Shown here piece after piece: positions 29,669 to 46,896 of a stretch of DNA of 64,000 bases. This DNA comes from an uncultured Woeseiaceae bacterium. GTDB taxonomy: Bacteria > Pseudomonadota > Gammaproteobacteria > Steroidobacterales > Woeseiaceae. A program made the position numbers and the translations under genes. The DNA lies in the NCBI GenBank assembly GCA_945788625.1, contig CALZMQ010000022.1:30007-94006 (forward strand). The letters are read 5' to 3'. How positions within the stretch are numbered: position 1 is the stretch's first letter; each line of letters begins with the position of its first letter. The notes below the pieces were generated by a model that ran no database searches, was not told the origin of the DNA, and saw nothing but the letters and a program-made list of their open reading frames with translations.

Positions 29669-30222
29669 TCCTGCACCCGGTACGAAGCAAGGCTGACCTC
29701 GGCAAGCAGTTTCGGATTGTCGTCAATGGCGTCGCGCCGGCTCATTCCGTACTCCTTGACAACGACGAATCCGAGCTCGTTCTTCGCATCCCAAAGCCAG
29801 CGATAAATATTGTCGTACTCGCCGACCAGTTCGATATTGAAAAGAATCTCGCTGAATACCTGTACCTGCTGCCCCAGGGCCGGCTTCACGCTGACGAGCT
29901 CGACGTCGTTTCGCCACGAGATGTTCTGCAGCCGCCCGATGACGTATGACTCGACCTGCTTCAGGGGAAGGTTGGCCATATCCCCGTGCAGCCGGAACTT
30001 GAGATCTTCGATCTTTGCGTGGCGTTCCTGCAGTTGCTGCTCGAGATTGGCGCTGTTTTGCCGGGCGCCCTCGAGAACGGCAACGGCCCTGGACGTCGCC
30101 CGATACTCCTTGACGACGGGGAGCAGTGCAGCGGTCACCGCGATCGATGTGAGTACCAGGCCAAGCCCCAGGAGAAGCATTCGAAACTCGCGCTCGCCGA
30201 GCTTTTTCAGGGACGACAACAT
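29665..30222 (-). CDS. PilO/GspM/MshJ-like bitopic inner-membrane protein
   Basis: N-terminal TM helix, a coiled coil, then a ferredoxin-like C-terminus. Called from position and architecture. Confidence 0.6.
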   Translation of the reverse strand: MLSSLKKLGEREFRMLLLGLGLVLTSIAVTAALLPVVKEYRATSRAVAVLEGARQNSANLEQQLQERHAKIEDLKFRLHGDMANLPLKQVESYVIGRLQNISWRNDVELVSVKPALGQQVQVFSEILFNIELVGEYDNIYRWLWDAKNELGFVVVKEYGMSRRDAIDDNPKLLAEVSLASYRVQE

Positions 30223-30878: not shown

Positions 30879-32040
30879 GGTCCGTTATCCCCCGTAGCGC
30901 AAGTCCCGTTGCCACGGCGATCTCGGGCGCGGAGCCGCTGGCGTCGGCACGCGCTGCTTTGTCGCTGGCAGGGAATAGCGACAAGGGATCGGGAATTTTC
31001 GAAACTTCCGATCCGGTCAGCGAGCTCAAGAGTTGGTCCGAGCCCGGCCAGCGCGCAATACTTCCCAGCAAATACACCCTGGTAACGCCGCGGCCGCGCG
31101 TTTCGGACGCGGCATACAGAAACGCGCGCTTGATTTCCTCGACGAGTTTCAGGAACTGCGGTTTGAGAATCTCCGACAAGGTATTGAACAGTCCGCTTTC
31201 ATCGATCGCGTCGGATACGACATCGCTGTTCCCGGTTGATTGCACCCCAGTGCGGACGACCAGTTGTCGTGCTGTCTCCTCCGGCATGTCGAGCGTCTCG
31301 CAGATATGCTGGATGAGGCTCTGTTCGCCGACCGCGACTTCCTGGTCGAACAACAAGTCGTTCCCCGATATCAGGGTCAGGTAACTGGCGCGTCTGCCCG
31401 AGTTGATGACGAGAGTATTGGCCGAATCCGATTCGCCGGACATCGCTCGGGCCAGGCGGCTAATCGCCAGCGGCCCGATCTCCAGTGCGGAAACATCCAG
31501 GCCCGCCTTGCGCGCCAATTCCAGGTAGTTGACGACGGGCTCGCGCTCACTGACGGCAACGAGGGCCAGCCGTTCGTCGCTCTTCGAACGGCCCCGCACC
31601 GGCATGTAATCGAGGACGTAATTGCCGAGGTCGCCGTCCAGCCGGTCCTTCATGATGCGTACGATCGCTGCGGCTTCGTTCTTCTCCCCGCCGGCGACCT
31701 GGTAGTTGATTGACACGGTGCGGAACATGCCGGAGGGCATTGCGAGCACCGCCTTGTTGCCGTAAAAGCGGTCCGAATCCAGCGCCTTCCTGACCAGGGA
31801 CCGGAATCGCTGCGGCTGTTCCAGCAGCTCGCGGCGCGAGCCGCCGATGTCCACAGAGGCTCTGGCCCGCACGACGGGCGCGTTTTCGCCGGACCGCTCG
31901 AGTTGCACGAGGTGAACTGCTTCCAGCGCAACGTCCAGCCCGATGGGACCGACCTGCACGGCTGAAGAGCGCCGAAAACTCGTCGCAGACAACGCATTGC
32001 TCAGGAAGTTTCTAACGGCCAAGGCTTCGCCCCACTGCAA
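30871..32040 (-). CDS. PilM-like actin-fold assembly protein (GspL cytoplasmic-domain equivalent)
   Basis: GLDVALEAVHLVQLERSG resembles the PilM GIDIGSSSIKLVEL motif, with actin/FtsA-like length. The TTG start is uncertain. Confidence 0.7.
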   Translation of the reverse strand: MQWGEALAVRNFLSNALSATSFRRSSAVQVGPIGLDVALEAVHLVQLERSGENAPVVRARASVDIGGSRRELLEQPQRFRSLVRKALDSDRFYGNKAVLAMPSGMFRTVSINYQVAGGEKNEAAAIVRIMKDRLDGDLGNYVLDYMPVRGRSKSDERLALVAVSEREPVVNYLELARKAGLDVSALEIGPLAISRLARAMSGESDSANTLVINSGRRASYLTLISGNDLLFDQEVAVGEQSLIQHICETLDMPEETARQLVVRTGVQSTGNSDVVSDAIDESGLFNTLSEILKPQFLKLVEEIKRAFLYAASETRGRGVTRVYLLGSIARWPGSDQLLSSLTGSEVSKIPDPLSLFPASDKAARADASGSAPEIAVATGLALRGITDRG

Positions 32041-32127: not shown

Positions 32128-35100
32128 CTAGGGCGCGCAGGTGATTTCGACGTTGTCGAACCAGACCTTGTTGCTGTTGCTCATACCGCTGTTCGGCGTC
32201 CGGAAACGAATGCGGGTACTCGAGCTCAGTGAGCCTGCGTTCAGCGGGTAGCTGGCGCCGGTATAAGATCCATCGGTCGCCGTACCGATAAAGCGATCGA
32301 GCTCCGACCAATTATCCCCGCCGTCGTAGGAGACCTCGACGGCGACGTAGTCGTTGCTGCCACTCAGGTTCTGGCGACGATAGTCAAAGCTCAGCGTCGC
32401 ACTCGTGGCACCGCTCAGGTCGGCCTCGCGCCACACGGTCTGGCCATCGTCGCGAACCTGCAGCTGGTAGTTGCTGATGTCATTAGCAATTTGAATATCG
32501 CCGCCGGAGGCGCTGGTTGCTTCGCCGGTCTCCTGCCAATCGGTCTTCCAGTTCGTCGAGCCGCCGCCGTAGTTCACGGCATCGAAACTATCGGTGAAGG
32601 GACCATTACAGCCGCCACCACCACCACCGCCGCTACCACCGCCAGCGGTGAATAAATCGGAAACCTCCGTTGCGCTCATCGGATAATCGTAGAGCCGAAT
32701 GTCGTCGAGCATCCCCGGCCAGTAGGTGCCGGCGTCGGGGGTTCCCCCTATCGTGAGCGGTTCGGTATTCGGCAGCGGGTGGTATGGCGTTGTGGTGTTG
32801 TATATCGATGTCCCGTCGACATAAATGTTGATGTCACCTGTGGTGTCATCAAGCGTCGCGGCGACGTGATACCACTGGTTGGTCGTTAGATTCGCGTTGG
32901 TGGTTTGAAACAGCTTCATTCCCGAGCCGTCGTTGAACGCAAATACAATTTCGTCGCTCCAGGTGGTGAGCTGATAGTTCGCTTGCTGCTTCTTTCGTAC
33001 CATCGTCTGGTATACGTTATTCAGAGCGGACGTTTTCAGCCAAAGACTGATCGTCATGTCGGTCAGCGAGAGTGCATCGTCGTGCGGCACATTGACGTAA
33101 TCATCGTTGCCCGGAAAACTAAGCGCATCACCGAGCTGACCTGCCACCCACACCGGGCCATTCGCCAGCGTTCCGTCGTGGCCGCCCTCGGAATCGATTG
33201 CCGTTAGTCCCGTGCCATCATCCAGTTTCCAATGCGCGATCGGACCTGTCGTGGTGGTTTCGGCCGCCAGCGTGGCAATTTCGACGGCGCTCAAGGCGAC
33301 ATCGTAGATGCGCAGGTCATCGAACTTGCCGTGGTAATCGCTGACCCATTGAGGATTTCCGAGTCGCAGGTTGCCGGTATTTGTTGGCGGTGTGAGACCT
33401 GTCGTGTCGCTCAGTACCTCTGTTCCGTCGAGATAGAGCCTGACGGCGTCACCAGAGTTATCGAATACACCGGCGATGTGATACCAGGTTCCTGACTGTA
33501 AGCCGAGTCCGGTGGTCTTGAATTCGATCCAGGCGCCGTCGTACCAGCCAAACGCGAGGTCCCCGTCAACCGTGCCGAAAAAGTAGTTGGAGTCGTAACC
33601 GACCTGGCCCTTATTGAAAATCTGATCGTAATAATCAACGGATGATTTGTTGATCCACGCAGTCAATGTGAATGCATCAGTGAGAGATAGCGATTCATCG
33701 TGCGGTACGACAATTACGTCGTCGACGCCATCGATATCCAGGGCACCATCGAGATAACCTGTACTCCAGGCCGGGCCGTTCTGCAGAGTGCCATTGTGTC
33801 CACCTACTGAATCGAGGGCCGTCGTGCCACTTGTCTCGTCCAGCTTCCAATGTGCAATCGGTCCTGTGTCCGTACTGCCTGCCCCCCACTCGATGGCGCG
33901 CTGCATAATCGTGAGACCGTCATCGGTGAGGAGATTGACGTCGAAATTGTACGATCCCCACGGTAATTTCACGCGGCGCGCCGGCGCCGGCGTACTGTCG
34001 TTGCGTAGCTCTCCGGATTCGAGATAAGCAAGACCCGGGTCGGTTCCACTCAGTTCGCCGAGGACATGCAGGTCGACAGCCAGCGTTCCCTGCAGCACCC
34101 ACATGGACTGGATCGCGGTGGAGAGTTGCACATTGCCGATAGCCAACGTCTCTGTAATGTAGTGAGAATTGTCAGTGAGGTTTATCGAGTCGGTATCGAC
34201 GAACGGGAACAGCGCGAAACCGCCAAGCAGCAACGCGCGCCTGGCCTCTTCTGTAATTACACCAACCGCGAGGTTATCCGCTTTATTGCCAAGCTCGTTC
34301 ATCGGCGTAGTGCCGAGCTCCGGAATGTAGACTACGTCGACTGCTCCTGCTGCCGTATCAAAGGCGGCCTGCGTGTCGGCCGTGGCGATCAGCGATATCG
34401 TGTGCCCCCAGCCCTCCATAAGAGCCTTTTTGTCGGCTTGCTCGATGGTCAGGTTGGCAGTATCACCCACGACCAGCAGGACCTTTTTGCCGTTGCTGGC
34501 CTTGCCCGCCCCCATCGCCCAGTCCAGCGAACGCTGCATAATCAATTGACCGCTGTTGTTGACCTCGGTCCAATCGATCTGCGTGTCGCGCCCGAACGGC
34601 AACATGACACGCCGCCCTGCGGCTGTTCCGCCGGTGGCGGACTTCGCGCCCGCGTCCAGCAAGGTAATCGTCAAACCGCCGCCCCAATCGGCCAGAGACC
34701 GTGCGTCGGGCGCGGGTGTTCCACCGATGGTCAGTCCACCCATGTCGGCGTTGTAGATCTCCAGTGCACCTGCAGCGAACGGCGCCGTGATGTAGTGGTC
34801 AGTATCGGTAACGGTAATACTCCGACCAACGGGCCAGCTACTCGAATTGCCCAATTCGAAGCCGAGTTCATCGTTCATCCAGCCATCTTCGTTGACCACG
34901 CCGATGGGCACGTCGCTCACCTTGGTGCCCAGACTGGTCGGATCGACGGTCTCCGATATATACACGACATCGCGGTCAGCAAGCTTGGTCTCATAGGAGT
35001 TCGCGCCGGCGCCATCGTTTATTACCTCCACGCTGTAGCCCCAGGCCTCGAAAAGAGCTTTCTTGTAGGCGTCTTGCGGATCGCTGAGGTTCGACTCCGC

Positions 35101-36603
35101 TACGATCATCAGGATGTTGCCGCTACCGCGTGGTGCGAGGCAGGCGTTACCGCACTCGCAGGCATAGGTGATTGTCAGCTTCGGACGGAGCGTGTAATCG
35201 CTGGTCTCGCGGGAGGCGAACTTTGCCTGCCTCAGACCGTCGGTGCTCCGGATCAGGAGACCATTGTTGGCCGTGCCATTCAGCCAGGCATTAGCCAGTG
35301 AGGTGACGTCCCAGGACACCCAACCGCTGGATGCGTCGATATTCGCTGTTGCAACGGGCGCCGGGTCAAAATCGCCGCCCGGCGAAGTCCAGGCAGCCGA
35401 TCCGTCGTGTGTTGACCAGGTCGCGCCATCGGCCACGCCCCCGCCGGTTCGTGTGCCCTCAACAAAGCGCTGTGTAAGCCGATGGACAGTGGCCGTGCCA
35501 GCGGTGTTAGTGGCCGAATTATTGAGTTGCAGCGTCGCCGTGAGGACTTTAGCTCCATACGGCAGGGTGGCAAGGTTGAACCTGAGCAACGGGTACTGCT
35601 GCCAATTTGACTCGTCATTGATCTGCAGGTAGTCGGCTCCGCCGTAATTGCGCTCATAGAACGAGTCTATCAGCGCATCCGCGCCGGAGTCGGCACCGAG
35701 CTGCAGTGTTACGGTTCCTGGCGCCTGGTAGGCGGCGGCAAGCTTATCCTTCAACTTCCGGGCGACGCCATTATCGAGCTTGCCCGTTGCTTTGATCGTA
35801 ACGGGCGATGCCGGCCCGCTGCCGACGACCACCTCGAGGCGTGGCGGATTCGTGCCATCTTCGCGCGACGTGTACTCGGTGTGCGTTCCGTCGGCTTGCG
35901 GGTTGAACAGGATGCCGTAGTTCGGTTGGCCGTTGATCCAGGCCTGAACCTGGGCTGTCAGGTTTATCCCCACCCACACGTCGCCCGTATCCTGGGCGGA
36001 TATCATGCCGATGGGGCTGCTGCCGTAAGCACCGGCGAATGACTCCCATGTGACGGTTGTTTCGGTCCAATCCGCGGTGATTTCGTGAATTGTTATCGGG
36101 CCTTCCGGATGCATTTTGCCGGCCTTGATGTGGAACCAGGCAATCGCTGAACTGATCTGCGCCTTGGCGGCAATGGAGGAAACGTCGAAGCGCGTCAGTA
36201 CCAGTTCGGTTCCGGCAGCCTCGCGCCTGACGTGATTCCACGTGGTCTTGCCGTTGTTCATCGAAACAGCGTCGCTGCGTATCCAGGCATCCTTATCAGC
36301 AGTAAATGAGAGTGCCGTACCCGGCGCTGCACCAGTAATCGTCGCGTTGTAGCTATCGGCGCCGAGCGAGGTGTCAGGAATCGTTACGTCGCCCATGCAG
36401 GCGTTGTTCTGCGCGCGCCACAGCGCATGCTGCGATCCGGCTTGTGCCACATAGTCCACACGTGCTGCGTCAAGCTCTCCGGACGATGCGTTTGCGCTTA
36501 CCGCGGAGTCGTAGTTCAACAGCAGCGAGATCGACGCAACCAGAAACAACATCACGACTACGGTGATGAGAAGATAGCCGCGTTGCTGAGTGCGTGTGCT
36601 CAC
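32128..36603 (-). CDS. 1491-aa GspK/PilX-like minor pseudopilin fused to DNRLRE-like, LamG/ConA-like and other modules (MshQ-like adhesin candidate)
   Basis: N-terminus QRGYLLITVVVMLFLVASISLL is a pseudopilin-type helix without Glu5, as in GspK. Two DNRLRE-like units (LTRFDVSS..., LLRFNLATLP..., WDVTSLANAWLNGTANNGLLI). Two duplicated alpha/beta modules. Two LamG units (GPIAHWKLDETSGTTALDSVGGHNGTL..., GPIAHWKLDDGTGLTAIDSEGGHDGTL...). A poly-Gly linker and a C-terminal beta module. GTGA overlap with the upstream pilin gene. Confidence 0.8.
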   Translation of the reverse strand: MSTRTQQRGYLLITVVVMLFLVASISLLLNYDSAVSANASSGELDAARVDYVAQAGSQHALWRAQNNACMGDVTIPDTSLGADSYNATITGAAPGTALSFTADKDAWIRSDAVSMNNGKTTWNHVRREAAGTELVLTRFDVSSIAAKAQISSAIAWFHIKAGKMHPEGPITIHEITADWTETTVTWESFAGAYGSSPIGMISAQDTGDVWVGINLTAQVQAWINGQPNYGILFNPQADGTHTEYTSREDGTNPPRLEVVVGSGPASPVTIKATGKLDNGVARKLKDKLAAAYQAPGTVTLQLGADSGADALIDSFYERNYGGADYLQINDESNWQQYPLLRFNLATLPYGAKVLTATLQLNNSATNTAGTATVHRLTQRFVEGTRTGGGVADGATWSTHDGSAAWTSPGGDFDPAPVATANIDASSGWVSWDVTSLANAWLNGTANNGLLIRSTDGLRQAKFASRETSDYTLRPKLTITYACECGNACLAPRGSGNILMIVAESNLSDPQDAYKKALFEAWGYSVEVINDGAGANSYETKLADRDVVYISETVDPTSLGTKVSDVPIGVVNEDGWMNDELGFELGNSSSWPVGRSITVTDTDHYITAPFAAGALEIYNADMGGLTIGGTPAPDARSLADWGGGLTITLLDAGAKSATGGTAAGRRVMLPFGRDTQIDWTEVNNSGQLIMQRSLDWAMGAGKASNGKKVLLVVGDTANLTIEQADKKALMEGWGHTISLIATADTQAAFDTAAGAVDVVYIPELGTTPMNELGNKADNLAVGVITEEARRALLLGGFALFPFVDTDSINLTDNSHYITETLAIGNVQLSTAIQSMWVLQGTLAVDLHVLGELSGTDPGLAYLESGELRNDSTPAPARRVKLPWGSYNFDVNLLTDDGLTIMQRAIEWGAGSTDTGPIAHWKLDETSGTTALDSVGGHNGTLQNGPAWSTGYLDGALDIDGVDDVIVVPHDESLSLTDAFTLTAWINKSSVDYYDQIFNKGQVGYDSNYFFGTVDGDLAFGWYDGAWIEFKTTGLGLQSGTWYHIAGVFDNSGDAVRLYLDGTEVLSDTTGLTPPTNTGNLRLGNPQWVSDYHGKFDDLRIYDVALSAVEIATLAAETTTTGPIAHWKLDDGTGLTAIDSEGGHDGTLANGPVWVAGQLGDALSFPGNDDYVNVPHDDALSLTDMTISLWLKTSALNNVYQTMVRKKQQANYQLTTWSDEIVFAFNDGSGMKLFQTTNANLTTNQWYHVAATLDDTTGDINIYVDGTSIYNTTTPYHPLPNTEPLTIGGTPDAGTYWPGMLDDIRLYDYPMSATEVSDLFTAGGGSGGGGGGGCNGPFTDSFDAVNYGGGSTNWKTDWQETGEATSASGGDIQIANDISNYQLQVRDDGQTVWREADLSGATSATLSFDYRRQNLSGSNDYVAVEVSYDGGDNWSELDRFIGTATDGSYTGASYPLNAGSLSSSTRIRFRTPNSGMSNSNKVWFDNVEITCAP

Positions 36604-37583
36604 AACATACCGCCCACCCGGACCCGGGCGCCGAGGCTGACGACGGCGCCGCCCGGACCCGTGAGTTCGAGTTCGATGGCGACCAGTTGCGGGGAACCGG
36701 CAGCAGAGGGAATTCGTTCGACGCGAAATCGCGTCACGTTTTCCGCGATCACGGATTCTACGAAGTCACGGCCGTCGACAGGGCCGTCTGGTACGCTGAT
36801 GCCGTCCTCGTTCCACGGCACGGGCATACGCTCGATCAACGACGAGCCGTCGAGGTAGTAGACGACCGGGTCGTAGGGGTCGTCAAACGAGCCGCCGTCT
36901 TCATCGTCGTCATCGTTCGTGCCGTCGTCGATCGTAGCGTCGGAATCGTCATCGACACCGCAGCGGCCGGGACAACCGTCTCCGTTGTTGTCGCTGGGCG
37001 GATCCTCATCGATGCTACCGTCGCCGTCGTTGTCGATGCCGTCCAGAGGATCCTCGTTTTGAGCGCCGTCTTCGTCGTCCTCGGCCCAGCCGGATCCATC
37101 GTCCACGGTGCCGTCACCGTCGTCGTCGATCAGCATGATCCCCGGCTGGAAGTCGTGGTGAATGTCGTTCGGGAGGTCCTCGTCGATCAGGCCGTCCCTG
37201 TCATCGTCAGCGTCGGGGAACCCGTCTGCGTCGAGATCGATGGACACGGGTAAGGTAATCGCCAGCACTGCCGTCGCGAGTGTGCTGTTGCCGACAGGGG
37301 CAGAAGGAGGCACGGTCTGTTCACGAAAATTCTCGGGCCAGTTCGTCGCCGGGTTGTCGGCGAGCGGCAGCAGCAGGCGACGCGACTCGCTGCTGACTCT
37401 CACCATTCGGTTGAGCCCAAAGCGTGCGTCTCGAAGCAGTTGATTCCGCTCTGCAACGAGTTCGTCGGTGCCCAGTGCATGCTTGGCGATACTTGCGACG
37501 GCGCCGAGCACAAGTCCGGCGAGCAGCATTGCGACCAGGAGCTCGACGAGCGTGAATCCGGATTGTCGTTTTCCGCGGCGCAT
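36600..37583 (-). CDS. Minor (pseudo)pilin, GspJ/PilW position, with an acidic DxDxDG calcium-binding-type repeat region
   Basis: Prepilin motif QSGFTLVELLVAMLLAG. The central region reads DLDADGFPDADDDRDGLIDED...DDDGDGTVDD...DNDGDGSIDED... Confidence 0.8.
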   Translation of the reverse strand: MRRGKRQSGFTLVELLVAMLLAGLVLGAVASIAKHALGTDELVAERNQLLRDARFGLNRMVRVSSESRRLLLPLADNPATNWPENFREQTVPPSAPVGNSTLATAVLAITLPVSIDLDADGFPDADDDRDGLIDEDLPNDIHHDFQPGIMLIDDDGDGTVDDGSGWAEDDEDGAQNEDPLDGIDNDGDGSIDEDPPSDNNGDGCPGRCGVDDDSDATIDDGTNDDDDEDGGSFDDPYDPVVYYLDGSSLIERMPVPWNEDGISVPDGPVDGRDFVESVIAENVTRFRVERIPSAAGSPQLVAIELELTGPGGAVVSLGARVRVGGML

Positions 37584-37585
37584 GG

Positions 37586-38014
37586 CTAGAAACCACGTGC
37601 GGTCACGGTCTGAATCGAGTGTACGGTCCCTTCGATTTCGACTCGGATCCAGACGAGATCCGCATCGCCGCCGGTAAACGTGTCGTTGTCGGCATCCGCG
37701 TTGTCGCCGTCATAGAGAGACAGATAGACGAGCAAGCGGACAGGCGGTCCGGCTGGATCGGAATAGCTACTGGGTGTTGTCGGCGCGCCCGCAGCGATCG
37801 CCGCATCCGACAGATCCGCAAACGGCTCGGCGAGCAGTTCCTCGAGTCGCGAGGACAATCGATAATGTCCTGACGCGAGACTCGCGTGAATATCGGTGCC
37901 AACGACGCTGGTCTGCAATGCGTGCATGGCCGGCACCAGGGCGATCGCCAGCAATGCTATCGCGATCAGCACTTCGATTAGCGTAAGACCGCTCTCCATT
38001 CGTCGTACCGTCAC
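37586..38014 (-). CDS. Minor (pseudo)pilin, GspI/PilV-like
   Basis: Prepilin motif ESGLTLIEVLIAIALLAIAL. 142 aa. Confidence 0.75.
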   Translation of the reverse strand: MTVRRMESGLTLIEVLIAIALLAIALVPAMHALQTSVVGTDIHASLASGHYRLSSRLEELLAEPFADLSDAAIAAGAPTTPSSYSDPAGPPVRLLVYLSLYDGDNADADNDTFTGGDADLVWIRVEIEGTVHSIQTVTARGF

Positions 38015-38568
38015 TGGATCGTTACCCGGCCGGTTATTGGGGCCACACTAACGAGGCTCCGTTGATTCCCGTAGCTCAGCTCGATGATTCCATCGCCGAG
38101 CAGATAAGTGGTGGGGCCAGAACCGACAATCCACTTGGGCGTGCCGTAAGCGTCGAAGATCAAACTTCTGCGCCGGCCCAGGCCTGTGAAGTTGAACACG
38201 TCCTGACTGTTACTGATGGTTACGCCTTGAGTGGTTGATCCGGTGGCGACATTGAAATCGTAGGGCTGCTTGTCGACGGGGTGGACCAGGGTATAGAGCG
38301 TGCTGATCGGGGCTGTGGTCATGTCGTACTTGTTGACCGTTACTTTCTGTGTGGCCTGGCTGACCGTAAGCCCATGTTCTTCGCCGGTACGGATTGCTTC
38401 ATCGCGGGCGAAGCGAATCGCGCTTGCGACTTTGTTTGCGGCCAGGTGCAGCCGCTTGTCGTGACTTGACGAGAATCCCGGTACTGCAATAGCAGCGACA
38501 ATTCCGAGAATCGTAATGACGACGACAAGTTCCACCAGCGTATAGCCGCGCTCCACTCGTGCCTTCAT
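38011..38568 (-). CDS. Minor (pseudo)pilin, GspH/FimT-like
   Basis: Prepilin motif RGYTLVELVVVITILGIVAAIAVPGF, then LAANKVASAIRFARDEAIR, which is typical of GspH/FimT. Confidence 0.8.
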   Translation of the reverse strand: MKARVERGYTLVELVVVITILGIVAAIAVPGFSSSHDKRLHLAANKVASAIRFARDEAIRTGEEHGLTVSQATQKVTVNKYDMTTAPISTLYTLVHPVDKQPYDFNVATGSTTQGVTISNSQDVFNFTGLGRRRSLIFDAYGTPKWIVGSGPTTYLLGDGIIELSYGNQRSLVSVAPITGRVTIQ

Positions 38569-38667: not shown

Positions 38668-39180
38668 TTACTCGTCGCCGATGAACTCGCCGGTGACCGA
38701 GTCGAAGCGCCAGCCGCCCGTCGAGCCGCTCGTCAGCCCGAGTACACCGGTGTTGACGACCGCCAGCGTGTTGACCGTGCCGAGCGGGTTCACCGGTAGA
38801 TCGTCCTTCAGGTACGGGCCGTACTTGAACTCGTTCGGGTCCGTACCGGTGCAGGCAAGGCCCGCCGCATTGGTGTAATTCTTGAGCTGGGCGATAAACG
38901 CCGGTTCGCCGACCGCACCGGCGACCGCGACACCGTTTATGCAGGTTGCGCCAGATGACGCGACAGCGCCCGGATACGCGTTGTGCTGTTGCCGGTACAA
39001 ATCGACAGCAGAGCGGATATTGGCGATATTCGTGTCATAGGCCGACTGATTCGCATCGTCCGTGGCTGCCGAGAATTGGGGCACGATGATTGCTGCCAGG
39101 ATTGCCAGGATAATGACGACAATCAGCAACTCCACCAACGTGAAACCATCCTGGTCTCTGGATCTTACAAGCGAAATCAT
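38668..39180 (-). CDS. Major (pseudo)pilin, GspG-like
   Basis: Leader MISLVRSRDQDG, then FTLVELLIVVIILAILAAIIVPQF. The following DTNIANIRSAVDLYRQQHNAYPG resembles the GspG ...LxLYxLDNGxYP motif. A GGGAG Shine-Dalgarno precedes this ATG; the ORF track starts at 39201. Confidence 0.85.
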   Translation of the reverse strand: MISLVRSRDQDGFTLVELLIVVIILAILAAIIVPQFSAATDDANQSAYDTNIANIRSAVDLYRQQHNAYPGAVASSGATCINGVAVAGAVGEPAFIAQLKNYTNAAGLACTGTDPNEFKYGPYLKDDLPVNPLGTVNTLAVVNTGVLGLTSGSTGGWRFDSVTGEFIGDE

Positions 39181-39293
39181 AGACTTATCTCCCGTATGCA
39201 TATCTTTAGTCCGCTACTGCAAGGGTTGTCGGCGCCTGGGCCGGAATCTTTAGGGGCTGCGTCGCTTTTTGAGCATCTGTACGGCTTCTCAAA

Positions 39294-40421
39294 TCAGGAA
39301 ACCGCGCGCGACAGCTTGAAGATCGGCAGGATGAGCGAGCTCACGAGTACGCCGACGACGACGCCCATCACGAGCAGCATGATTGGTTCGGCCAGTTTCG
39401 ACAGGGAATCCAGCTTCTTGGCCAACTGGACCTCGTAGTACTCGCAGATTCGCCCGGCTACTTTGCCGAGATTGCCGGTCTGCTCGCCCGTGGCGATCAT
39501 GTGTTTGGCCAACTCGGGCAGGAAGGTGGAGTCGGCGAATCCGGCGGCCACGCCGGCGCCCGCCTGCACGGATTCCTCGACTTTCATTATGAGTTTGCGA
39601 AACAGGGAGTTGCGCACAACGTCGCGGCAGGCTTCGAGGCTCTCCATGACCGAAACGCCGTTATTGAGCGACAGGCTGAGCACCTGCAGCGACTGCACGA
39701 GATAGATCTGCGTGAAGATGTCACGCAGCCCCGGCGTGCGCAGCTTCATGCGATCGACCGTCGTCACGCCACCGTCGCTGGCCAGCCACTGACGCAGCCC
39801 GACGACAAAGACACCGAGCCCGCCCAGCAGGACGAACCAGTACTGGCGCAACAGATCGCTCACGGCCATGAGTGCTTTCGTGGACATGGGCAGCTGGTCG
39901 TAGATCGACTCGAACATATCGCCGAATTTCGGAAACACGGCGACCAGCACGAACACGACGACTGCGAGCGAGAACGCGATCAGGAACATCGGGTAGGTGG
40001 CTGCCGACACCAGGGTGTTGCGTAACTGCTCGCGTTTCTGGTCCATGTGCAGCAACTGCTCGAGGACTTCGTGCATGAAGCCGCCGGCCTCGCTGGCCGA
40101 AATCAGGTTGACGTAGGTCGAGGAGAAAATGTGGTCGTGATCGGCCAGGGCGCTGCCGAACGAGCGACCTTCACTGATGTTCTGTGCGACGGTTTCGACC
40201 ACGGAACGCATTTCCGCGTTCTCGGTTTGTTTGACGATCGTAGTCAGTGCGCCGAACAGGCTCTCACCCGTTTCGAGCAACAGCGCAAGTTGTTCCGTGA
40301 AGAACATGCGGTCCGATGCGCTGGCACGCCTGCCGTTTCCCGGCATGCGCAGTTTGAAGCCGGCGTCTTCGTTGCCGCCGGTAGTCTCCTCGAGTTCTTC
40401 AGTGTCAAGTTGAATCGCCAA
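39294..40421 (-). CDS. GspF/PilC/MshG-family inner-membrane platform protein
   Basis: Two T2SSF repeats. A TTG at 40421 just after the ATPase stop is the likely start; the 402-aa track ORF overlaps the ATPase gene by 71 nt. Confidence 0.85.
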   Translation of the reverse strand: MAIQLDTEELEETTGGNEDAGFKLRMPGNGRRASASDRMFFTEQLALLLETGESLFGALTTIVKQTENAEMRSVVETVAQNISEGRSFGSALADHDHIFSSTYVNLISASEAGGFMHEVLEQLLHMDQKREQLRNTLVSAATYPMFLIAFSLAVVVFVLVAVFPKFGDMFESIYDQLPMSTKALMAVSDLLRQYWFVLLGGLGVFVVGLRQWLASDGGVTTVDRMKLRTPGLRDIFTQIYLVQSLQVLSLSLNNGVSVMESLEACRDVVRNSLFRKLIMKVEESVQAGAGVAAGFADSTFLPELAKHMIATGEQTGNLGKVAGRICEYYEVQLAKKLDSLSKLAEPIMLLVMGVVVGVLVSSLILPIFKLSRAVS

Positions 40422-40431
40422 TGCCGGGTAC

Positions 40432-42459
40432 CTAGGTGCTGGTGGCGCGCGAGACTTCCTCGATCGTGGTCTTGCGATCGAGCGCCCGCTGCAGGCCGTC
40501 ATGGAAAAGGTTATGGAAGCCGCGGCGGTCGAGGTAATCGCTCAGCTCGTCACGAGTCGGGCTGGAGATAATCAGTTTCTGCAGGTCGACGTCCGTCTTC
40601 AGTACTTCGTGTATGCCGATGCGGCCCTTGTGCCCCGAGTCATAGCATTGCTCGCAGCCTTTACCTTTCGCGAGCTTGACGTCGCCCTGGTCCTGCCAAC
40701 CGTATTGCTGCACGAGCTCGGGCGGCGCGAGAAACTCGTACTTGCAGTTGGAGCATATCGTTCGCACCAGGCGCTGGCCGACGACGCCGAGCAGTGCAGA
40801 CGACAGGAGATAGGGCTCGACGCCCATATCGATGAGGCGCGTAATCGCGCCGACCGCGTCGTTGGTATGCAGGGTCGAGAGAACGAGATGACCGGTCAGC
40901 GCGGCCTGCACCGCAATTTCCGCGGTCTCGCGTTCACGGATCTCGCCGACCATGACGATGTCCGGGTCCTGCCTGAGTACGTGTTTAAGAATCTTCGCGA
41001 ACGACAGCCCTATGCCGTCGCGGACTTCGTTCTGGTTGATGATGTCGAGCTGATACTCTACCGGGTCTTCGATCGTGACGATGTTCTTCTCGATACTCTT
41101 CAAGTAGTTGAGGGCCGCGTACAGGCTCGTCGTCTTGCCGCTTCCGGTCGGTCCGGTTACGAGAATGAGGCCGTGACTCGCATCGAGGAGATTCTTGAAT
41201 ATGCCTAAGTTGTCGCTCGCCATGTTGAGCTTGTTGACGTCGAGTATCGCCTGGTTCTTGTCGAGTATTCTCAACACCACCTTTTCGCCGTACAGGCCGG
41301 GCAGGGAGCTGAATCTGAGGTCGACCGAGCGCCCCTGCGTGTGCACCTGGATGCGGCCGTCCTGTGGCATGCGCCGCTCGGCGATATCGAGGTTTGCCAT
41401 AACTTTCAGGCGGGAGATCAGCGCCGGGTGCAGTTCCACGCGCGGTGCGGTGAATTCGTACAATAGACCGTCGATGCGAAAACGGATACGCGAGTGCGTG
41501 CGAAACGGCTCGAGGTGTATATCCGATGCGCCGTCATGGACCGCGCGCTGAATGATGGAATTCACCAGGTTTACGACAGGGCTGCCGGCAGCGACTTCAT
41601 CGATCGTCGAGTGATCCTCGATCTGCATGCTTTCGACGACGGCAAAGTCCTCGTCGACGTCGCCGACCATGTCGAACTGCATGTCGGCAATGCCGAGCGA
41701 TTCGCTCAGGAGTTTCTGGATGTCCTGTTTGCGCGCCAGCACGGGCCGGACCTCGCACTGCAGACGCTCGGAGACTTCCTCGAAAGTCGGCATGTCCTGC
41801 GGTTTCGCGGTTGCCAGGTACAGGACGCTGCGCACCCTGAAGATCGGCATGACGCAGAGGCGTCGCGCGACGCCGACATCGAGCGTCGCCGCGGTGGTGG
41901 GGTCGAAGAGTCCCGGGCGCAGGCGCACGAACGGTACGCCGAGCTGCTCTCCCAGCGCGCGCAGGACGTCATACTCCTCGACCCATCCCTTGTCGATAAT
42001 GATTCGGCCCATGCGTTTGCCGAGACGATCCTGGAGTTTCAATGCCTCGTCGATTCTCGCCTGGGGCCTCGAGCCGGGACCGAAGCTCACGTCGTCCGGA
42101 TCTTTGCGTTCCTGGCGCCCATCGCTGTCGAGAAAGGAAATGTAGTCCGAAAGGCCGGTGATCGCGGCGATTTCGCCGATAATGGAGTTGTGAGTCGTGA
42201 TCTTGACCCAGCCGCCGATTTTCATCAGGCGATCCTGGAGGTCCGCAAGGCAGGACAGGGCCAGGCTGTCGATCGTCTGCACCGCGGAGAAGTCGATAAT
42301 GATCTTTGAATCGCCGGCGTCGATGGATTCGTCGATGGCCAGCATCAGGTCTTGCAGCGCGTCGTTGCCGACCAGCGAAAACTTCGGCGTCACATGTGTC
42401 GCGACACCGATTCTTACGCGGGCAATGGCCGACGATGCCGTTTTTGCGGGCTCGTTCAT
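40432..42459 (-). CDS. GspE/PilB/MshE-family secretion ATPase with an N-terminal STAS (anti-sigma-antagonist-like) domain
   Basis: Residues ~20-110, KIIIDFSAVQTIDSLALSCLADLQDRLMKIGGWVKITTHNSIIGEIAAITGLSDYISF, fit the STAS pattern. A GspE_N-type domain follows (RMGRIIIDKGWVEEYDVLRALGEQLGVPFV). Walker A GPTGSGKTT and the tetracysteine CSNC...CEQC are present. ATGA overlap with the upstream gene. Confidence 0.9.
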   Translation of the reverse strand: MNEPAKTASSAIARVRIGVATHVTPKFSLVGNDALQDLMLAIDESIDAGDSKIIIDFSAVQTIDSLALSCLADLQDRLMKIGGWVKITTHNSIIGEIAAITGLSDYISFLDSDGRQERKDPDDVSFGPGSRPQARIDEALKLQDRLGKRMGRIIIDKGWVEEYDVLRALGEQLGVPFVRLRPGLFDPTTAATLDVGVARRLCVMPIFRVRSVLYLATAKPQDMPTFEEVSERLQCEVRPVLARKQDIQKLLSESLGIADMQFDMVGDVDEDFAVVESMQIEDHSTIDEVAAGSPVVNLVNSIIQRAVHDGASDIHLEPFRTHSRIRFRIDGLLYEFTAPRVELHPALISRLKVMANLDIAERRMPQDGRIQVHTQGRSVDLRFSSLPGLYGEKVVLRILDKNQAILDVNKLNMASDNLGIFKNLLDASHGLILVTGPTGSGKTTSLYAALNYLKSIEKNIVTIEDPVEYQLDIINQNEVRDGIGLSFAKILKHVLRQDPDIVMVGEIRERETAEIAVQAALTGHLVLSTLHTNDAVGAITRLIDMGVEPYLLSSALLGVVGQRLVRTICSNCKYEFLAPPELVQQYGWQDQGDVKLAKGKGCEQCYDSGHKGRIGIHEVLKTDVDLQKLIISSPTRDELSDYLDRRGFHNLFHDGLQRALDRKTTIEEVSRATST

Positions 42460-44663
42460 GCCGAGACGGCGATGGCGCCTGCTTTGAGGCCATCCAGTAT
42501 TTCGATGATGGGAACCGGTTTGCCGATGCCGAATCCCTGCACGTAGTCGACACCGATTACACGGAGGGCTTCTTTCGTTTCTGCATCGCCAACGAATTCG
42601 GCGACCATCGAAAGTTGCATGGTTCTGCCGATCTGACAGATGGCCTCGACCATGGATTCCGACACTTCGTCCGTCGTAATCTCGCGGACGAAGCTGCCGT
42701 CGATCTTGAGGTAGTCCACCGGGAGTACCTTGAGATAGCCGAACGAACTCAGGCCCGCGCCGAAGTCGTCGAGGGAGAAGCGGCAGCCGATCTCACGCAA
42801 CGCGGTCATGAAGCGGACGGCATCGTCAATATTCGATATCGCCGCCGTCTCGGTCACCTCGAAGCAGATATTCTGCGCCGGTACTCCGGATTGCCGAATT
42901 TCATCGACGATAAAGGACTGGAATCCAGGATTGGCAAACGACTGCCCTGACAGATTGATGCAGAACACGGGTTCGTGAGTCGCTATCTCGGACCAGCCCT
43001 CACCGAGCGACACCAGCGCGTTGTGCACGACCCAACGGTCGACCAGGGGCATGAGCTGGTAGCGCTCGGCGGCCGGCAGGAACACGTTGGGGCCCAGAAT
43101 TTCGCCCTCTTCGCCGCGCAAGCGTATCAAAAGTTCGAAATGCGGAGATTTCGACTGATCCAGCAGCGGCAACACAGGCTGGCAATAGAGCGTGAAGCGA
43201 TCGCTGCGCAGGGCATCCTGGACACGGCCGATCCATTCGATCTCTTCGCTTCTGCGTACCAGCGTCGTATTGTCTTGTTCGAAAATCTGGATGCGGTCCC
43301 GGCCTTCTTCCTTGGCTGCCTTGCAGGCAATTTCGGCCGCAGCCATGACGCCGACGATACCGTCGGTATCACGGTTGACCTGGGCGATCCCGACGCAGGC
43401 GGATACGTCCAGCGTTCGCTGCGCTGACACGACGGTCAGCTCGTGAATGGCGCCGCGCAGTTTTTCCGCGACGGAAAAACCCTGGCGAATATCGCAGTTG
43501 AGCAGCAATACGCCGAACTCGCCGCCGCCTATGCGTGACATGACGTCCGCTTCGCGCAGAACGCCGGTCATGGTCCTGGCAACCCGGCGAATGAGCGCGT
43601 CGCCCTCCTGGTATCCCATGAGATCGTTGACGACATGCAGCTGATCGATGTTTATGTGCAACAAACAGTGCTGCAGGCTCTTGCTTTGCGTGCTGGCGAG
43701 CGACGCGATGAGCGATGACTCGAAACCGCTGCGGTTCATCAGGCCCGTCAGGGAGTCGTGATGTGTATGGATGATGCGGGACGCTTTCTTCGCCATGACC
43801 TCGAGGAGGTTGCGGTCGCCGTTCGAGAACGTGTGCATGTCGTGCCGCGCCACGACGGCCAGCAAACCGATTGCCGTGCCATGATTGTCGATGACGGGAT
43901 AAGCGAGCAGGTTTTCGTTTCTGCCTTCGAACAGGTGAATACGCTCTTCAGCATCCGTCGCGTTGAGAACGACGCTCTGAACCTGCGACTCGACGCGGTC
44001 GTATATGGTCGTTGCCAGCAATTCGAGCAGCTGTTCGACGCCAGGGGGCGATTCGGTGCCGTTGACGTTGTGGATTTTCAAGCCACGGTCCCTGCAGATA
44101 AGGGCGGCGAGGCCGACATCCAGGTAGTCCGCACAATTGTGGACCAGCCTGACCAGCGCTTCCTGGCCTTCTTCGAAAAATTCGACCTGGTCTTTCGTCG
44201 AATAGACGAGATTGAGTTCCTCGTAGCGTTCGCCGAGCTCGGCGGCGAGCTGGTTGCATTCCGACTGCAGTTCGATCTCTTCCTGCAGGAATACCGTCGC
44301 GTCTGCAAAAGCACGGCGCAACGGCTCGGGAGCGGTCTCCATCGCGATACTGGGTTGCGTATCGTAGGTTGTGATTAACCACCCGATGGGGCCGTAGTCT
44401 TTCTGTGCGAGAGACACTCGAAACTGCATCCGCGTATCGGGCAACTGGCGCTTTTCGATGCCCGCTCCGAACGGCGACCAGACCACGACCGGATTGTCGT
44501 CCTGCGTTTCTGCGTCGGTCTGCCCTGCTACCGGAGGCAACCAGGCCCAGAACGACTCACCCTGGCGATCGCGGATTTCGAGGCCGGCGACGCCGGGAAA
44601 CACACGCGGCAACAGCCGCGCGTATTTCTGCATCGACAACGATTTGAGGATTCTCGCGCTCAC
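42456..44663 (-). CDS. GGDEF-EAL protein: degenerate cyclase motif (GGGEF) with an intact RxxD I-site, and an apparently competent EAL phosphodiesterase
   Basis: READVMSRIGGGEFGVLL. The EAL domain carries FELLIR, EVTE, DDFGAG, KIDGSF and QGF. A GAF-like N-terminal region is present. GTGA overlap with the receiver gene. Confidence 0.9.
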   Translation of the reverse strand: MSARILKSLSMQKYARLLPRVFPGVAGLEIRDRQGESFWAWLPPVAGQTDAETQDDNPVVVWSPFGAGIEKRQLPDTRMQFRVSLAQKDYGPIGWLITTYDTQPSIAMETAPEPLRRAFADATVFLQEEIELQSECNQLAAELGERYEELNLVYSTKDQVEFFEEGQEALVRLVHNCADYLDVGLAALICRDRGLKIHNVNGTESPPGVEQLLELLATTIYDRVESQVQSVVLNATDAEERIHLFEGRNENLLAYPVIDNHGTAIGLLAVVARHDMHTFSNGDRNLLEVMAKKASRIIHTHHDSLTGLMNRSGFESSLIASLASTQSKSLQHCLLHINIDQLHVVNDLMGYQEGDALIRRVARTMTGVLREADVMSRIGGGEFGVLLLNCDIRQGFSVAEKLRGAIHELTVVSAQRTLDVSACVGIAQVNRDTDGIVGVMAAAEIACKAAKEEGRDRIQIFEQDNTTLVRRSEEIEWIGRVQDALRSDRFTLYCQPVLPLLDQSKSPHFELLIRLRGEEGEILGPNVFLPAAERYQLMPLVDRWVVHNALVSLGEGWSEIATHEPVFCINLSGQSFANPGFQSFIVDEIRQSGVPAQNICFEVTETAAISNIDDAVRFMTALREIGCRFSLDDFGAGLSSFGYLKVLPVDYLKIDGSFVREITTDEVSESMVEAICQIGRTMQLSMVAEFVGDAETKEALRVIGVDYVQGFGIGKPVPIIEILDGLKAGAIAVSA

Positions 44664-45049
44664 TGCGCCGCCACCGGCCTGTCGGGTTGCTCGAGGCTCT
44701 TGCCGATATAGGACACCAGGCGCCGCACGCTGACCGGTTTTTCCATGAACAACAGGTTGTCGATGCCCGTGGTCCAGGTGCGGTGCTCAATCTCCGTTCG
44801 CGATGTCAGTACAACGATTGGAAACGTCCTGTCCGGGAACTGCTCTTCGATTGTAAGGCAGAGTTCCTTGCCGCCCATACGCGGCATATCGATATCCGTG
44901 ATCAGGAAATCGGGATGGCCGTTGCATAGCTTCACCAGGCATTCGGAGCCGTTCGCCGCAGTGTCGACGTCATAGCCGGCGTCCTCGATACCGAGTTTCA
45001 ACACGCGCACGACCGGTGGGTGATCGTCGACAATGAGAATTCGTTTCAT
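44660..45049 (-). CDS. Stand-alone CheY-like receiver protein
   Basis: MKRILIVDDHP...FLITDIDMPRMGG...MEKP. 129 aa with no output domain. Confidence 0.9.
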   Translation of the reverse strand: MKRILIVDDHPPVVRVLKLGIEDAGYDVDTAANGSECLVKLCNGHPDFLITDIDMPRMGGKELCLTIEEQFPDRTFPIVVLTSRTEIEHRTWTTGIDNLLFMEKPVSVRRLVSYIGKSLEQPDRPVAAQ

Positions 45050-45051
45050 AC

Positions 45052-46896
45052 CTAGATAACCTGTTTAACCGCGGTCGACTCGGCCCAGAGATTGATGATG
45101 AATTCGGCACCTTCGTCCCGGTCCCGATTGAGCGACAGCGTGCCGTGATGTAATTCGACGATTTGCCTCGCAAGCGCTAACCCCAGGCCATGACCCCCGA
45201 TCGCCTGAACTCGCTCATCAGCAGAGCGGTAAAACTTGTCGAAGATGCGGGCTTCCTCGGCGTCGCTGATGCCGATGCCGGTGTCGGCAACGCGAACCTG
45301 TACGGCGTCGCCGGTGTCTTCGAGCGTCACGGTCACCTTGCCGTCTTCCTTGTTGTACTTGACGGCATTGCTCATCAGGTTGGTGATGGCGACGCGAATG
45401 AGGTCCTTGTCCACCATGACCGGGTTCATTTCCTTCGGCACGTCGAGTTCGAGATCGCAGTTCGTGCCGGCGGCCATGTAGCAGGCCTCGTCATAGGCCG
45501 CGCGGACGACGTCCTGCAGTTTCACGAGGCTCCGCTCGGGCGAGATGCTGCCGCTCTCGATCTGGGTCATGTTCAGCAACCCGGTAATCAGGGTGCCCAA
45601 TCGGTCGACCTCTGCAGCGATGACGTTGGCCGCCTCGATCTGGTGTTCCCTCGACTTGCCTGCATCGCTCAAGAGCGACTCGCTGTAAAGGCCGAGTACG
45701 TTGAGCGGCGACTTCAGCTCGTGGGACAGGTGGGAGACAAACTCGGTTCTCGCTTTCCTGGCGAGTGCCTCCTGGGTTTCGTCGCGAAAAACAATCAGCG
45801 TGCCGATGGCGGATGCCGGGTTCTTCGGCGAGAACAGGGGATAGGTCTTCGTGGCGATCGACTTCGAGTACGCGGTTCGCGTATCGAAGCGAATGGTCTC
45901 GCTGAAGTTGCGCGAATTGCGCTTTGCCTGGAACTTCATGATGAGATCGAGCACGTCGGGGTGCTCGCACCAGCTTTGCGGCGCCTGGGACAACAGCGTT
46001 TCCTGCGTCACGTCGAACAGCGCGGCGAGCTTCTGGTTAGCAAACGTAACGGTCCCCGATTCGTCGAGAATCATTACGGCCTCGGGCAGGGTTTCGAGCA
46101 CCGTTTCAACGCGGTTTTTGCGGTAGGTCAGCAGCTTGCTGGAGGTGAGCAGGCGGTCCTTGTCCTGCTCCAGCAACTGGATCTTCGAGGAGGCCATCTC
46201 GACGAAGTGGTTGAAACGCCGCATGAACTCGCCGAGTTCACCGGTCGCCGAGACTTGCACCGACTGGAAGCCGTCGCCATCGATCAGCTTGCTGATCTCG
46301 TCGTTGGCGGCCCTGATTGGCCGCACTTCCATTCTCAGCAGGAAGTAGAAGAACGGGGCAAGCAGGAAAACGGGCAGTGCGACCATGGCGAGGAATGGCA
46401 TCTGCGCGAGGCTGAGTCCGGCTGACGGGTGGAGGTAGCCAAGCCGAACGAAACCCCTCAAGTCGCCGTCTTGCAGGAGCGGCGCATGGAATTCGATGAA
46501 GCGCTGGTCGCCCGAGCGTAGTTCCATATTGCCGAGCCAGGCGCTGGGTTCTGCCGGGATTTTCGCCACTGGCACAATCGAACCGCCGGCCGCGGCTTCC
46601 GCCACGGTGCGGCCGTCGCCGTCGCTGATCGTTACATAAGCGAGCCGTGTATTCGCGGCACCGTGGTGCAGCGCCTGTACGACGCCCTGCTGCTGGCCGC
46701 CCGGAACGAGCTGCTCGTAGGGTATGGCCGATATCGCGCGGGCCAGGCTCACACCCTGCGTGCGAATCTCCGCCAGCTGGTCGTCCTTCTGGTTTTGAAA
46801 CAGCAAAAACACTATCGTTGCTATAGCAAGCAATGATGCAACCACGACGACGAGGCCAATTCGATCGGCTTTTGGCAACGGACTAATCCAATTCAA
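45052..46896 (-). CDS. Membrane sensor histidine kinase (periplasmic loop, HAMP, PAS, HisKA, HATPase)
   Basis: H-box SHELKSPLN, N box NLMSNAVKYN, G boxes DTGIGI and GHGLGL. Two TM segments. TTG start. Confidence 0.9.
   Translation of the reverse strand: MNWISPLPKADRIGLVVVVASLLAIATIVFLLFQNQKDDQLAEIRTQGVSLARAISAIPYEQLVPGGQQQGVVQALHHGAANTRLAYVTISDGDGRTVAEAAAGGSIVPVAKIPAEPSAWLGNMELRSGDQRFIEFHAPLLQDGDLRGFVRLGYLHPSAGLSLAQMPFLAMVALPVFLLAPFFYFLLRMEVRPIRAANDEISKLIDGDGFQSVQVSATGELGEFMRRFNHFVEMASSKIQLLEQDKDRLLTSSKLLTYRKNRVETVLETLPEAVMILDESGTVTFANQKLAALFDVTQETLLSQAPQSWCEHPDVLDLIMKFQAKRNSRNFSETIRFDTRTAYSKSIATKTYPLFSPKNPASAIGTLIVFRDETQEALARKARTEFVSHLSHELKSPLNVLGLYSESLLSDAGKSREHQIEAANVIAAEVDRLGTLITGLLNMTQIESGSISPERSLVKLQDVVRAAYDEACYMAAGTNCDLELDVPKEMNPVMVDKDLIRVAITNLMSNAVKYNKEDGKVTVTLEDTGDAVQVRVADTGIGISDAEEARIFDKFYRSADERVQAIGGHGLGLALARQIVELHHGTLSLNRDRDEGAEFIINLWAESTAVKQVI

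Follow-up and report, generated by a model that had tools for sequence, protein, structure and literature searches.

A large modular protein with a K-type pilin N-terminus as candidate tip adhesin of a divergent type IV filament in Woeseiaceae

Introduction

Minor pilins in the K position of type IV filaments always lack the glutamate at position 5 of the mature chain (Glu5) and are apical in the filament (PMC13533445). Extra domains can be present in cis, as in GspK and CpaL, while PilY1 and MshQ (the latter with ~1200 residues and encoded after mshDOP) dock in trans (PMC13533445). In addition, modular pilins that carry vWA or ConA/LamG modules are widespread tip adhesins, with PF13385/LamG among the most commonly grafted modules and 860 aa as the largest size noted (PMC8179133); examples are Streptococcus sanguinis PilB with a vWA module and PilC with a ConA/LamG lectin module (PMC8179133, PMC9934059). 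Here, we describe a gene of an uncultured Woeseiaceae bacterium that occupies positions 32128..36603 on the minus strand of a 64,000-nucleotide stretch of contig CALZMQ010000022.1 (hereafter the window). We call its product K after its position at the end of an H-I-J-K block of minor pilin genes, and we favor, as the rather probable reading, that it is the apical, Glu5-less minor pilin of a type IV filament that carries the tip adhesin in the same polypeptide.

Like GspK/XcpX and PilX/PilK, K is the last member of its H-I-J-K block and begins with a QRG/hydrophobic signal (the slash marks the predicted cleavage site) that lacks Glu5. It also resembles GspK/XcpX in the profile-level homology of its first helix alpha1 (hhalign, 94%) and in being translationally coupled to J. 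Unlike GspK and PilX, it has neither a T2SSK domain nor an alpha-helical insertion, PilX_N stays below threshold, and its pilin globule is cut down to three strands that are followed by ~1380 extra residues; unlike in the GspK system, its machinery is of the PilMNO and not the GspC/L/M type. Similar to the modular pilins surveyed previously (PMC8179133), K combines a predicted pilin module (aa 1-109) with domains that are not specific to pilus biology. However, the surveyed proteins match IPR012902, have Glu5, and usually carry one extra module, whereas K is Glu5-less, does not match IPR012902, comes from a diderm, and accommodates seven extra modules of four kinds in 1491 aa. Because of its Glu5-less signal, a K-type modular pilin would escape a survey based on IPR012902. 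An earlier sequence-only reading of the locus had likened K to modular pilins, and this comparison holds for the grafting of CBM96, amidotransferase-like, and LamG pairs onto a pilin module but not for the IPR012902 signature.

CpaL of Tad systems and ComZ-type subunits are likewise K-position pilin-like proteins with an adhesin domain in the same chain, but the ~600 aa long CpaL returns its C-terminal strand to its own pilin sheet while the K C-terminus is not conserved across the family, and CpaL and ComZ belong to Tad or Com systems instead of a PilMNO/secretin system (PMC13533445). PilC/PilY1 and MshQ (~1000-1200 aa) share with K a similar size, the place after the minor pilins, and the proposed role as tip adhesins linked to cyclic di-GMP (c-di-GMP), but they are non-pilins seated on a separate K-type pilin, whereas the operon described here has no separate K gene. 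Judged by sequence, K is not a member of the GspK, PilY1, or MshQ families, and it does not reach the threshold of PilX_N.

K is encoded by a single open reading frame whose start is truncated in public annotation

Positions 32128..36603 form a single minus-strand open reading frame of 1491 aa with a GTG start codon, in agreement with the single gene proposed by the sequence-only reading. At the junction with the upstream gene, the DNA reads ...atgttGTGAgcaca... (…ttGTGAgc…), so that the TGA stop codon of the 327-aa J-like pilin gene (36600-37583) overlaps the GTG start of K and the proposed GTGA coupling to the preceding minor pilin gene is evident. The public gene call of the identical protein (P0001) has only 1474 aa and starts at Met18, which cuts off the pilin signal: the missing aa 1-17 (window 36553-36603) are the part with the QQRG/YLLITVVV sequence. 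The segment ahead of Met18, with the pattern QxG[YF], is conserved in ~100 homologues, and we therefore consider the upstream GTG to be the real start. Database homologues such as P0019, P0022, and P0025 are truncated in the same way as P0001, and such start codon calls are probably why the family is annotated merely as "DNRLRE domain-containing protein."

The mature chain would have 157.6 kDa and a pI of 4.3, and the portion past the pilin module comprises 1382 aa and 147 kDa. Cysteines are found at positions 69, 482, 484, 488, 1332, and 1489.

The N-terminus of K has the features of a Glu5-less pilin signal and a GspK-related alpha1 helix

The pilin-like module of K (aa 1-109; 36277..36603, minus strand) consists of a 9-aa leader ending with Gly9, the helix alpha1, three strands, and the invariant Cys69; aa 7-22 read QRGYLLITVVVMLFLV. 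Its QQRG/YLLIT signal has a threonine at +5, and across the family this position is occupied by Pro or Thr but in 0/235 members by Glu, which bears out the Glu5-less pseudopilin helix of the sequence-only reading. Among the N-termini of the family, glycine at -1 directly before the hydrophobic stretch is found in 222 of 224 sequences and Tyr or Phe at +1 in 217 of 224, while 180 of 221 have Gln at -3. This glycine is the sole invariant residue among the first 50 positions of the family. AlphaFold2 modeling of aa 1-500 from a 22-sequence alignment (pLDDT 86, pTM 0.75) predicted a 57-residue alpha1 helix (aa 10-66) and strands at aa 73-80, 83-90, and 95-109, followed by two beta-sandwiches; the three strands lead straight into the first beta-sandwich, with no alpha-domain insertion in the model.

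The relationship to GspK was apparent from comparisons of family alignments, which were needed because the comparison to a single sequence, E. coli GspK, was in register but too weak (17%) to be informative. When compared to a 24-sequence GspK family alignment, the N-terminal profile of K scored 94.4% in hhalign (E 9.5e-8, 63-64 columns), and this alignment spans the whole alpha1, is in register at the cleavage glycine, and stops at column 67. In control comparisons, the same K profile reached 38-68% over 25-31 columns, i.e., the membrane segment alone, with the families of the co-encoded G, H, I, and J pilins, and the GspK profile reached 6-51% with these families. At the level of sequence profiles, the N-terminus of K is specifically related to alpha1 of the GspK family, and this similarity ends with the helix. 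Matches to established pilin families are sparse. PilX_N (PF14341; gathering threshold 25.5 bits) is the only recurrent Pfam match and was found below threshold in 4 of 30 family members (E 2e-4 to 0.07), covering the full profile in register, though not in the window protein itself. The N_methyl motif (PF07963 / IPR012902) gave no match in K and a single one at E 0.047 among ten family members, and the T2SSK Pfam domains PF03934 and PF21687 gave no match in K at E<=0.1. A profile search with the N-terminal module listed 150 matches, and among these all were members or fragments of the K family and none was a classical short PilX or GspK.

Since Pfam and NCBIfam call no prepilin motif in K, one could alternatively view it as an ordinary Sec-exported multidomain lectin or signal-anchored membrane protein that works outside the filament, possibly as its cargo. 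The plain "DNRLRE domain-containing protein" of public annotation would suit such a protein, as would an "ISA/N"-like stretch past the hydrophobic segment of close relatives that can be read as a signal peptidase I site. However, Sec signals do not require the near-universal glycine at -1 and aromatic residue at +1, the putative AxA site is not conserved in distant members, and the hydrophobic stretch of ~20 residues runs on as one 57-residue helix with specific profile similarity to the whole of GspK alpha1. The Sec signals of three proteins encoded downstream (a 122-aa protein, the secretin, and a HYR domain protein; see below) have short h-regions unlike this stretch. Furthermore, the K gene has an invariant position after J, and no other gene of the operon is of the K type. 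We regard a role of K outside the filament as quite improbable. An ordinary Sec signal had already been weighed by the sequence-only reading and is now disfavored by the invariant glycine ahead of the hydrophobic stretch and the lack of a conserved AxA site, while the K-type pilin reading held in all sequence-level tests that we ran and is thus supported.

The head of K combines duplicated CBM96-like, amidotransferase-like, and LamG modules

Beyond the pilin module, K has the domain order proposed by the sequence-only reading with two DNRLRE units, two alpha/beta modules, two LamG modules, a glycine linker, and a terminal beta module. The two DNRLRE/CBM96 modules (aa ~100-262, 35818..36306, and aa ~295-481, 35161..35721; all head modules are on the minus strand) are matched by NCBIfam DNRLRE NF033679 (E 4.5e-42, 144 bits at a cut-off of 34) and by Pfam CBM96 PF24517 (E 9.6e-31, 107 bits at a cut-off of 26), with two matching stretches for each of these models, and they match each other with E 1.6e-10. 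Structural searches with Foldseek linked these units to a chondroitin-sulfate-binding carbohydrate-binding module (CBM; 8wab, E 5e-7, TM 0.77) and to an alginate-binding CBM96 (7vbo, E 1.4e-4), and they superpose on both with target-normalised TM values of 0.64-0.79 at a sequence identity of ~16%; the search with the model of aa 1-500 was dominated by matches to CBMs and TGF-beta prodomains. CBM96 has been defined as an alginate-specific module (PMC9971899). The CBM96 of alginate lyases (7vbo, PMC9971899) and 8wab are appended to polysaccharide lyases, whereas K has no catalytic module. An invariant CxCxxxC cluster (Cys482, 484, and 488; 35140..35160) follows the second unit and closes the conserved N-terminal block.

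The alpha/beta modules (aa 489-705, 34489..35139, and aa 706-932, 33808..34488) are duplicates with 31% identity (E 1.8e-23). Their AlphaFold2 model (pLDDT 82) has the fold of class I glutamine amidotransferases, with structural matches to TrpG (1i1q_B, target-normalised TM 0.69), gamma-glutamyl hydrolase, and SpuA. There is no cysteine in aa 489-935 and hence no catalytic Cys-His-Glu triad of these enzymes, and the modules match no Pfam family. Because of these two observations, we read the modeled pair as a non-catalytic scaffold or binding module characterized by an invariant HxIT motif (H603-x-I-T in module 1) and an invariant arginine pair (R664-R665). These ~445 aa make up one third of the ~1450 aa that the sequence-only reading had described as lectin-like, a description that does not apply to the amidotransferase-like folds.

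The two ConA-like Laminin_G_3 modules (aa ~935-1122, 33238..33801, and aa ~1123-1318, 32650..33237) match PF13385 with E 1.2e-55 and are 38% identical to each other (E 8.6e-39). A match to NCBIfam TafC (111 bits at a cut-off of 410) was rejected as mere LamG similarity to a haloarchaeal Tat-fimbria subunit. The linker GGGSGGGGGGG (aa 1321-1331, 32611..32643) leads to the C-terminal beta module (32131..32610), which is bracketed by Cys1332 and Cys1489 and has sub-threshold matches to MAM, Reelin_subrepeat-B, and choice-of-anchor J. Of the families that had been suggested for a domain search, NF033679 and Laminin_G_3 are matched by K while PilX_N and T2SSK are not reached. By fold and family similarity, the CBM96-like and LamG modules may bind carbohydrates.

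K belongs to a large family with a conserved stalk and mosaic heads

A search with full-length K retrieved >170 strong homologues that, where named, come from Gammaproteobacteria, Woeseiaceae, Thiogranum, Thiodiazotropha, or Xanthomonadales metagenome-assembled genomes (MAGs) and are annotated as "DNRLRE domain-containing" or occasionally as "Tfp pilus assembly protein PilX." Out of 1.84 billion representatives, the N-terminal profile alone detected 1199 at E<=1e-3 and, with the stricter limit of E<=1e-10, 505, i.e., a family of at least 505 clusters at 50% identity that is concentrated in Woeseiaceae, Chromatiales, and lineages of sulfur-oxidising symbionts. A literature search found no paper describing these proteins, and K represents a large and so far unstudied family of marine-sediment Gammaproteobacteria.

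We compared gene order using contigs of one genome per species, which yielded 53 loci with a true K relative. J directly precedes K in all 47 of the related loci that have upstream DNA; together with the 94.4% profile similarity to GspK alpha1, this corroborates the K position assigned by the sequence-only reading. An order of genes for a histidine kinase (HK), a response regulator (RR), a GGDEF/EAL protein, E, F, G, H, I, J, and K followed by PilM, PilN, PilO, a protein of 122 aa, and a secretin recurs in about 45 loci/species. Within this cluster, K belongs to the least conserved proteins, with a median identity to the window protein of 42% compared to 59% for J and 61% for the ATPase.

Sequence conservation along K is uneven. 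While aa 1 to ~930 can be aligned throughout the family, many homologues cover just 61% of the query, and the region past aa ~930 is a mosaic of 0-4 LamG modules and at least 4 unrelated terminal modules of which the C-terminal beta module of the window protein is one. Low conservation and a mosaic C-terminus are as expected for an exposed adhesin and, at the level of sequence, would fit this role. A conserved C-terminal strand that folds back in cis as in CpaL or GspK was considered and found unsupported, with the C-termini falling into at least four classes.

The operon probably encodes a divergent type IV filament with a PilMNO platform

K is embedded in a minus-strand operon in the order HK, receiver protein, GAF-GGDEF-EAL protein, ATPase, platform protein, major pilin, H, I, J, and K, with PilM, PilN, PilO, the 122-aa protein, the secretin, and a 1562-aa HYR/BNR protein downstream. 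The conserved regulatory trio (42456..46896) is composed of the histidine kinase (45052-46896), the receiver protein (44660-45049), and the GAF-GGDEF-EAL protein (42456-44663). It is followed by the assembly ATPase of the GspE/PilB class (40432..42459), in which an N-terminal STAS (anti-sigma-antagonist-like) domain precedes the MshEN region with a single copy of the 24-residue c-di-GMP motif (aa 149-172; RMGRIIIDKGWVEEYDVLRALGEQ; 34.8 bits with the NCBIfam motif model at a cut-off of 38), and by the GspF/PilC platform protein (39294..40502). The major pilin candidate (38668..39201; 177 aa, G/FTLVE) has a GspG-like N-terminus as well as Cys87 and Cys117. The minor pilins are H-like (38011..38568; 185 aa, G/YTLVE, with a GspH Pfam match), I/PilV-like (37586..38014; 142 aa, G/LTLIE), and J-like (36600..37583; 327 aa, G/FTLVE, with an acidic DxDGDG-rich insert). 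All four of these pilins have Glu5, which leaves K as the only Glu5-less subunit of the operon. Downstream of K, after a gap of 88 bp, follow PilM (30871-32040), PilN (30222-30878), and PilO (29665-30222), with PilM_2, PilN, and PilO domains, respectively, the 122-aa protein with its Sec signal (29300-29668), and a short secretin of 442 aa (27979-29307). The acidic insert of the J-like pilin is a ~125-residue stretch (aa ~110-235) with DxDGDG / DxDxDG repeats, which look like calcium-binding sites, and a CPGRC pair; a shorter stretch, DGDNADADND, is present in the I-like pilin.

For the window proteins, the equivalog models of both type II secretion systems (T2SS) and type IVa pili (T4aP) all score below cut-off, and no GspC, GspL, or GspM equivalogs were found in the window. 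Because of these scores and of the PilMNO platform in place of GspC/L/M, the system is, as far as its sequences tell, a divergent type IV filament with PilMNO and secretin and not a textbook T2SS. This bears on the unlikely alternative that K caps a short periplasmic pseudopilus in a T2SS-like machine, where the head would stay in the periplasm or secretin vestibule as a piston tip, bind polysaccharide or the Sec-exported 1562-aa HYR/BNR protein as cargo, and push this cargo out. Cyanobacterial Hps loci, which link pseudopilins to polysaccharide secretion, are a precedent for such a machine, and a weak NCBIfam HpsC match of the J-like pilin is the sole trace of Hps at this locus. In line with a piston, the GspE, GspF, and GspG models give slightly higher scores for ATPase, platform, and major pilin than the PilB or PilC models do, the window contains no retraction ATPase, the large Sec-signal protein after the secretin is kept in close relatives (L008 and L014), and an exopolysaccharide (EPS) synthase module adjoins the operon. 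Yet the T2SS equivalogs remain below cut-off, the platform is made of PilM/PilN/PilO, the HYR protein is missing from most related loci, and the EPS unit, which brings along a YaiO-type outer-membrane barrel, is found apart from filament genes in two other genomes. A fast-diverging mosaic head is also easier to reconcile with an exposed adhesin than with a fixed cargo receptor.

The size of K, its LamG content, and its place after the minor pilins are reminiscent of MshQ (PMC13533445). They might indicate that K is a non-pilin tip adhesin of the PilY1/MshQ type that uses beta-strand addition to dock in trans on the minor pilins; however, the operon would then be left without any Glu5-less pilin of the K/MshP type, given that H, I, and J all have Glu5, while K itself has a K-type signal and alpha1. 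It further lacks a PilY1/PilC beta-propeller and any match to an MshQ-type family in Pfam and NCBIfam, with LamG as the only domain shared with MshQ, and the extreme C-terminus, from which the docking strand would have to come, is of at least four unrelated classes in the family. The MshEN-type motif of the ATPase and the preceding GGDEF-EAL gene also resemble the msh locus. We consider docking of K in trans to be highly improbable. A PilY1-like partner was also sought between K and PilM in other loci, but no PilY1-like or MshQ-like gene was found there, and this candidate was rejected: the intervening genes encode GGDEF and HDOD proteins, RAYT transposases, or fragments of frameshifted K.

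Several loci (L001, L012, L013, L017, L018, L022, L024, L026, etc.) have a membrane GGDEF protein of ~385-426 aa with intact motif between K and pilM, sometimes joined by an HDOD protein of 287 aa. A RAYT-like REP-associated tyrosine transposase ("...MPNHFHLV...") is encoded directly downstream of K in several Woeseiaceae-type loci (L002, 14604-15332; L014, 14705-15364; also L015 and L023).

Proposed assembly and role of K

Under our favored reading of K as an apical minor pilin, its precursor would be anchored in the inner membrane by the N-terminal hydrophobic helix until its 9-residue leader is cut off behind Gly9 by a prepilin peptidase whose gene lies elsewhere. Because it has no Glu5, K would be confined to the top of an H-I-J-K priming complex, beneath which the GspE/PilB-class ATPase, the PilC-like platform, and PilMNO could polymerise the 177-aa major pilin. 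The growing filament would then drive the head of K outward through the secretin of 442 aa. This head may be understood as a conserved stalk of two CBM96-like and two inactive amidotransferase-like modules with a distal set of domains that varies between lineages, represented in the window protein by two LamG modules and the MAM-like module, and it could attach in a multivalent manner to polysaccharides, probably acidic ones, of particles, matrix, or other cells. The genes for HK, RR, and the GGDEF-EAL protein together with the MshEN-type motif of the ATPase suggest that filament assembly may be gated by c-di-GMP.

A number of observations weigh against this reading. K itself stays below threshold for N_methyl, PilX_N, and T2SSK in Pfam, a sequence-profile search of the PDB with the N-terminal module gave only chance matches to membrane helices, the pilin-like beta-sheet of three strands is very small, and nearly all relatives come from uncultured MAGs. 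The window contains no prepilin peptidase and no PilT-like retraction ATPase. A head of ~147 kDa must traverse, or be pre-loaded in, a short secretin, which seems plausible by analogy to PilY1. The extreme C-terminal strand is not universally conserved in the family, and the C-terminus of K would offer no conserved donor strand if the "beta-strand addition" rule (PMC13533445) applies. Ligands are suggested by fold and family similarity alone, and the adjoining EPS unit stands without filament genes next to it in both other genomes that were checked (L062 and L063).

More broadly, it is possible, though we say so tentatively, that benthic Gammaproteobacteria (Woeseiaceae and relatives) have a distinct class of c-di-GMP-gated filaments in which the K initiator and a PilY1/MshQ-class adhesin are one ~158-kDa chain, with a conserved 930-residue stalk, comprising K alpha1, two CBM96 modules, and two dead amidotransferase folds, and a swappable lectin head that would serve as a deployable polysaccharide grapple on particles or matrix. 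In marine sediments, Woeseiaceae rank among the most abundant bacteria, and a lectin-tipped filament controlled by c-di-GMP could provide a major route of attachment to particles or polysaccharides in this habitat. If located at the filament tip, K would far exceed in size any pilin-anchored adhesin described, compared to 860 aa as the previous extreme of the survey. It would also be a natural fusion of the K initiator with a PilY1/MshQ adhesin, which are separate in T4aP and MSHA pili, and therefore useful for testing the beta-strand-addition model for how tip complexes assemble. K-type modular pilins are missed by motif-based (IPR012902) surveys and by automatic start codon calls alike.

Neighboring genes and variation among related loci

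The 1562-aa Sec-signal protein after the secretin (23080-27768, same strand) has BNR/sortilin-like and HYR domains and an Ig-like C-terminus. Only L008 and L014, the closest related loci, retain it (74-77% identity), and it could be cargo, a partner, or unrelated.

The EPS unit that adjoins the filament operon (47680-52457 and 54220-55455) is of the synthase type and encodes a receiver protein, a TPR/YaiO-family outer-membrane barrel, a HEAT-repeat protein, and a PgaC/cellulose-synthase-like GT2 glycosyltransferase, with a polysaccharide pyruvyl transferase nearby. Many Woeseiaceae have this four-gene unit, with a conservation of 82-90%. Binding of K to the EPS that these GT2/YaiO genes produce was considered but is made less plausible by the unit standing alone in the two genomes mentioned above.

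Some related loci deviate from the common pattern. Two copies of the whole G-H-I-J-K block are present in one MAG in two cases (L005 with L007, and L034 with L052), and the K frame is broken in L008, L028, L045, L048, and L049 by assembly frameshifts or as a pseudogene. Short contigs with a J-K or K-PilMNO block are labeled as archaeal (L016 and L027, Halobacteria archaeon) or alphaproteobacterial (L019 and L041, Rhodospirillales), most likely due to binning errors and not horizontal transfer. The record of L029 (Gammaproteobacteria bacterium Milos-ODIII6) has no MAG flag and may come from a cultured strain; its locus is rearranged, with the H-I-J-K block located upstream of HK-RR-GGDEF-E-F-G.

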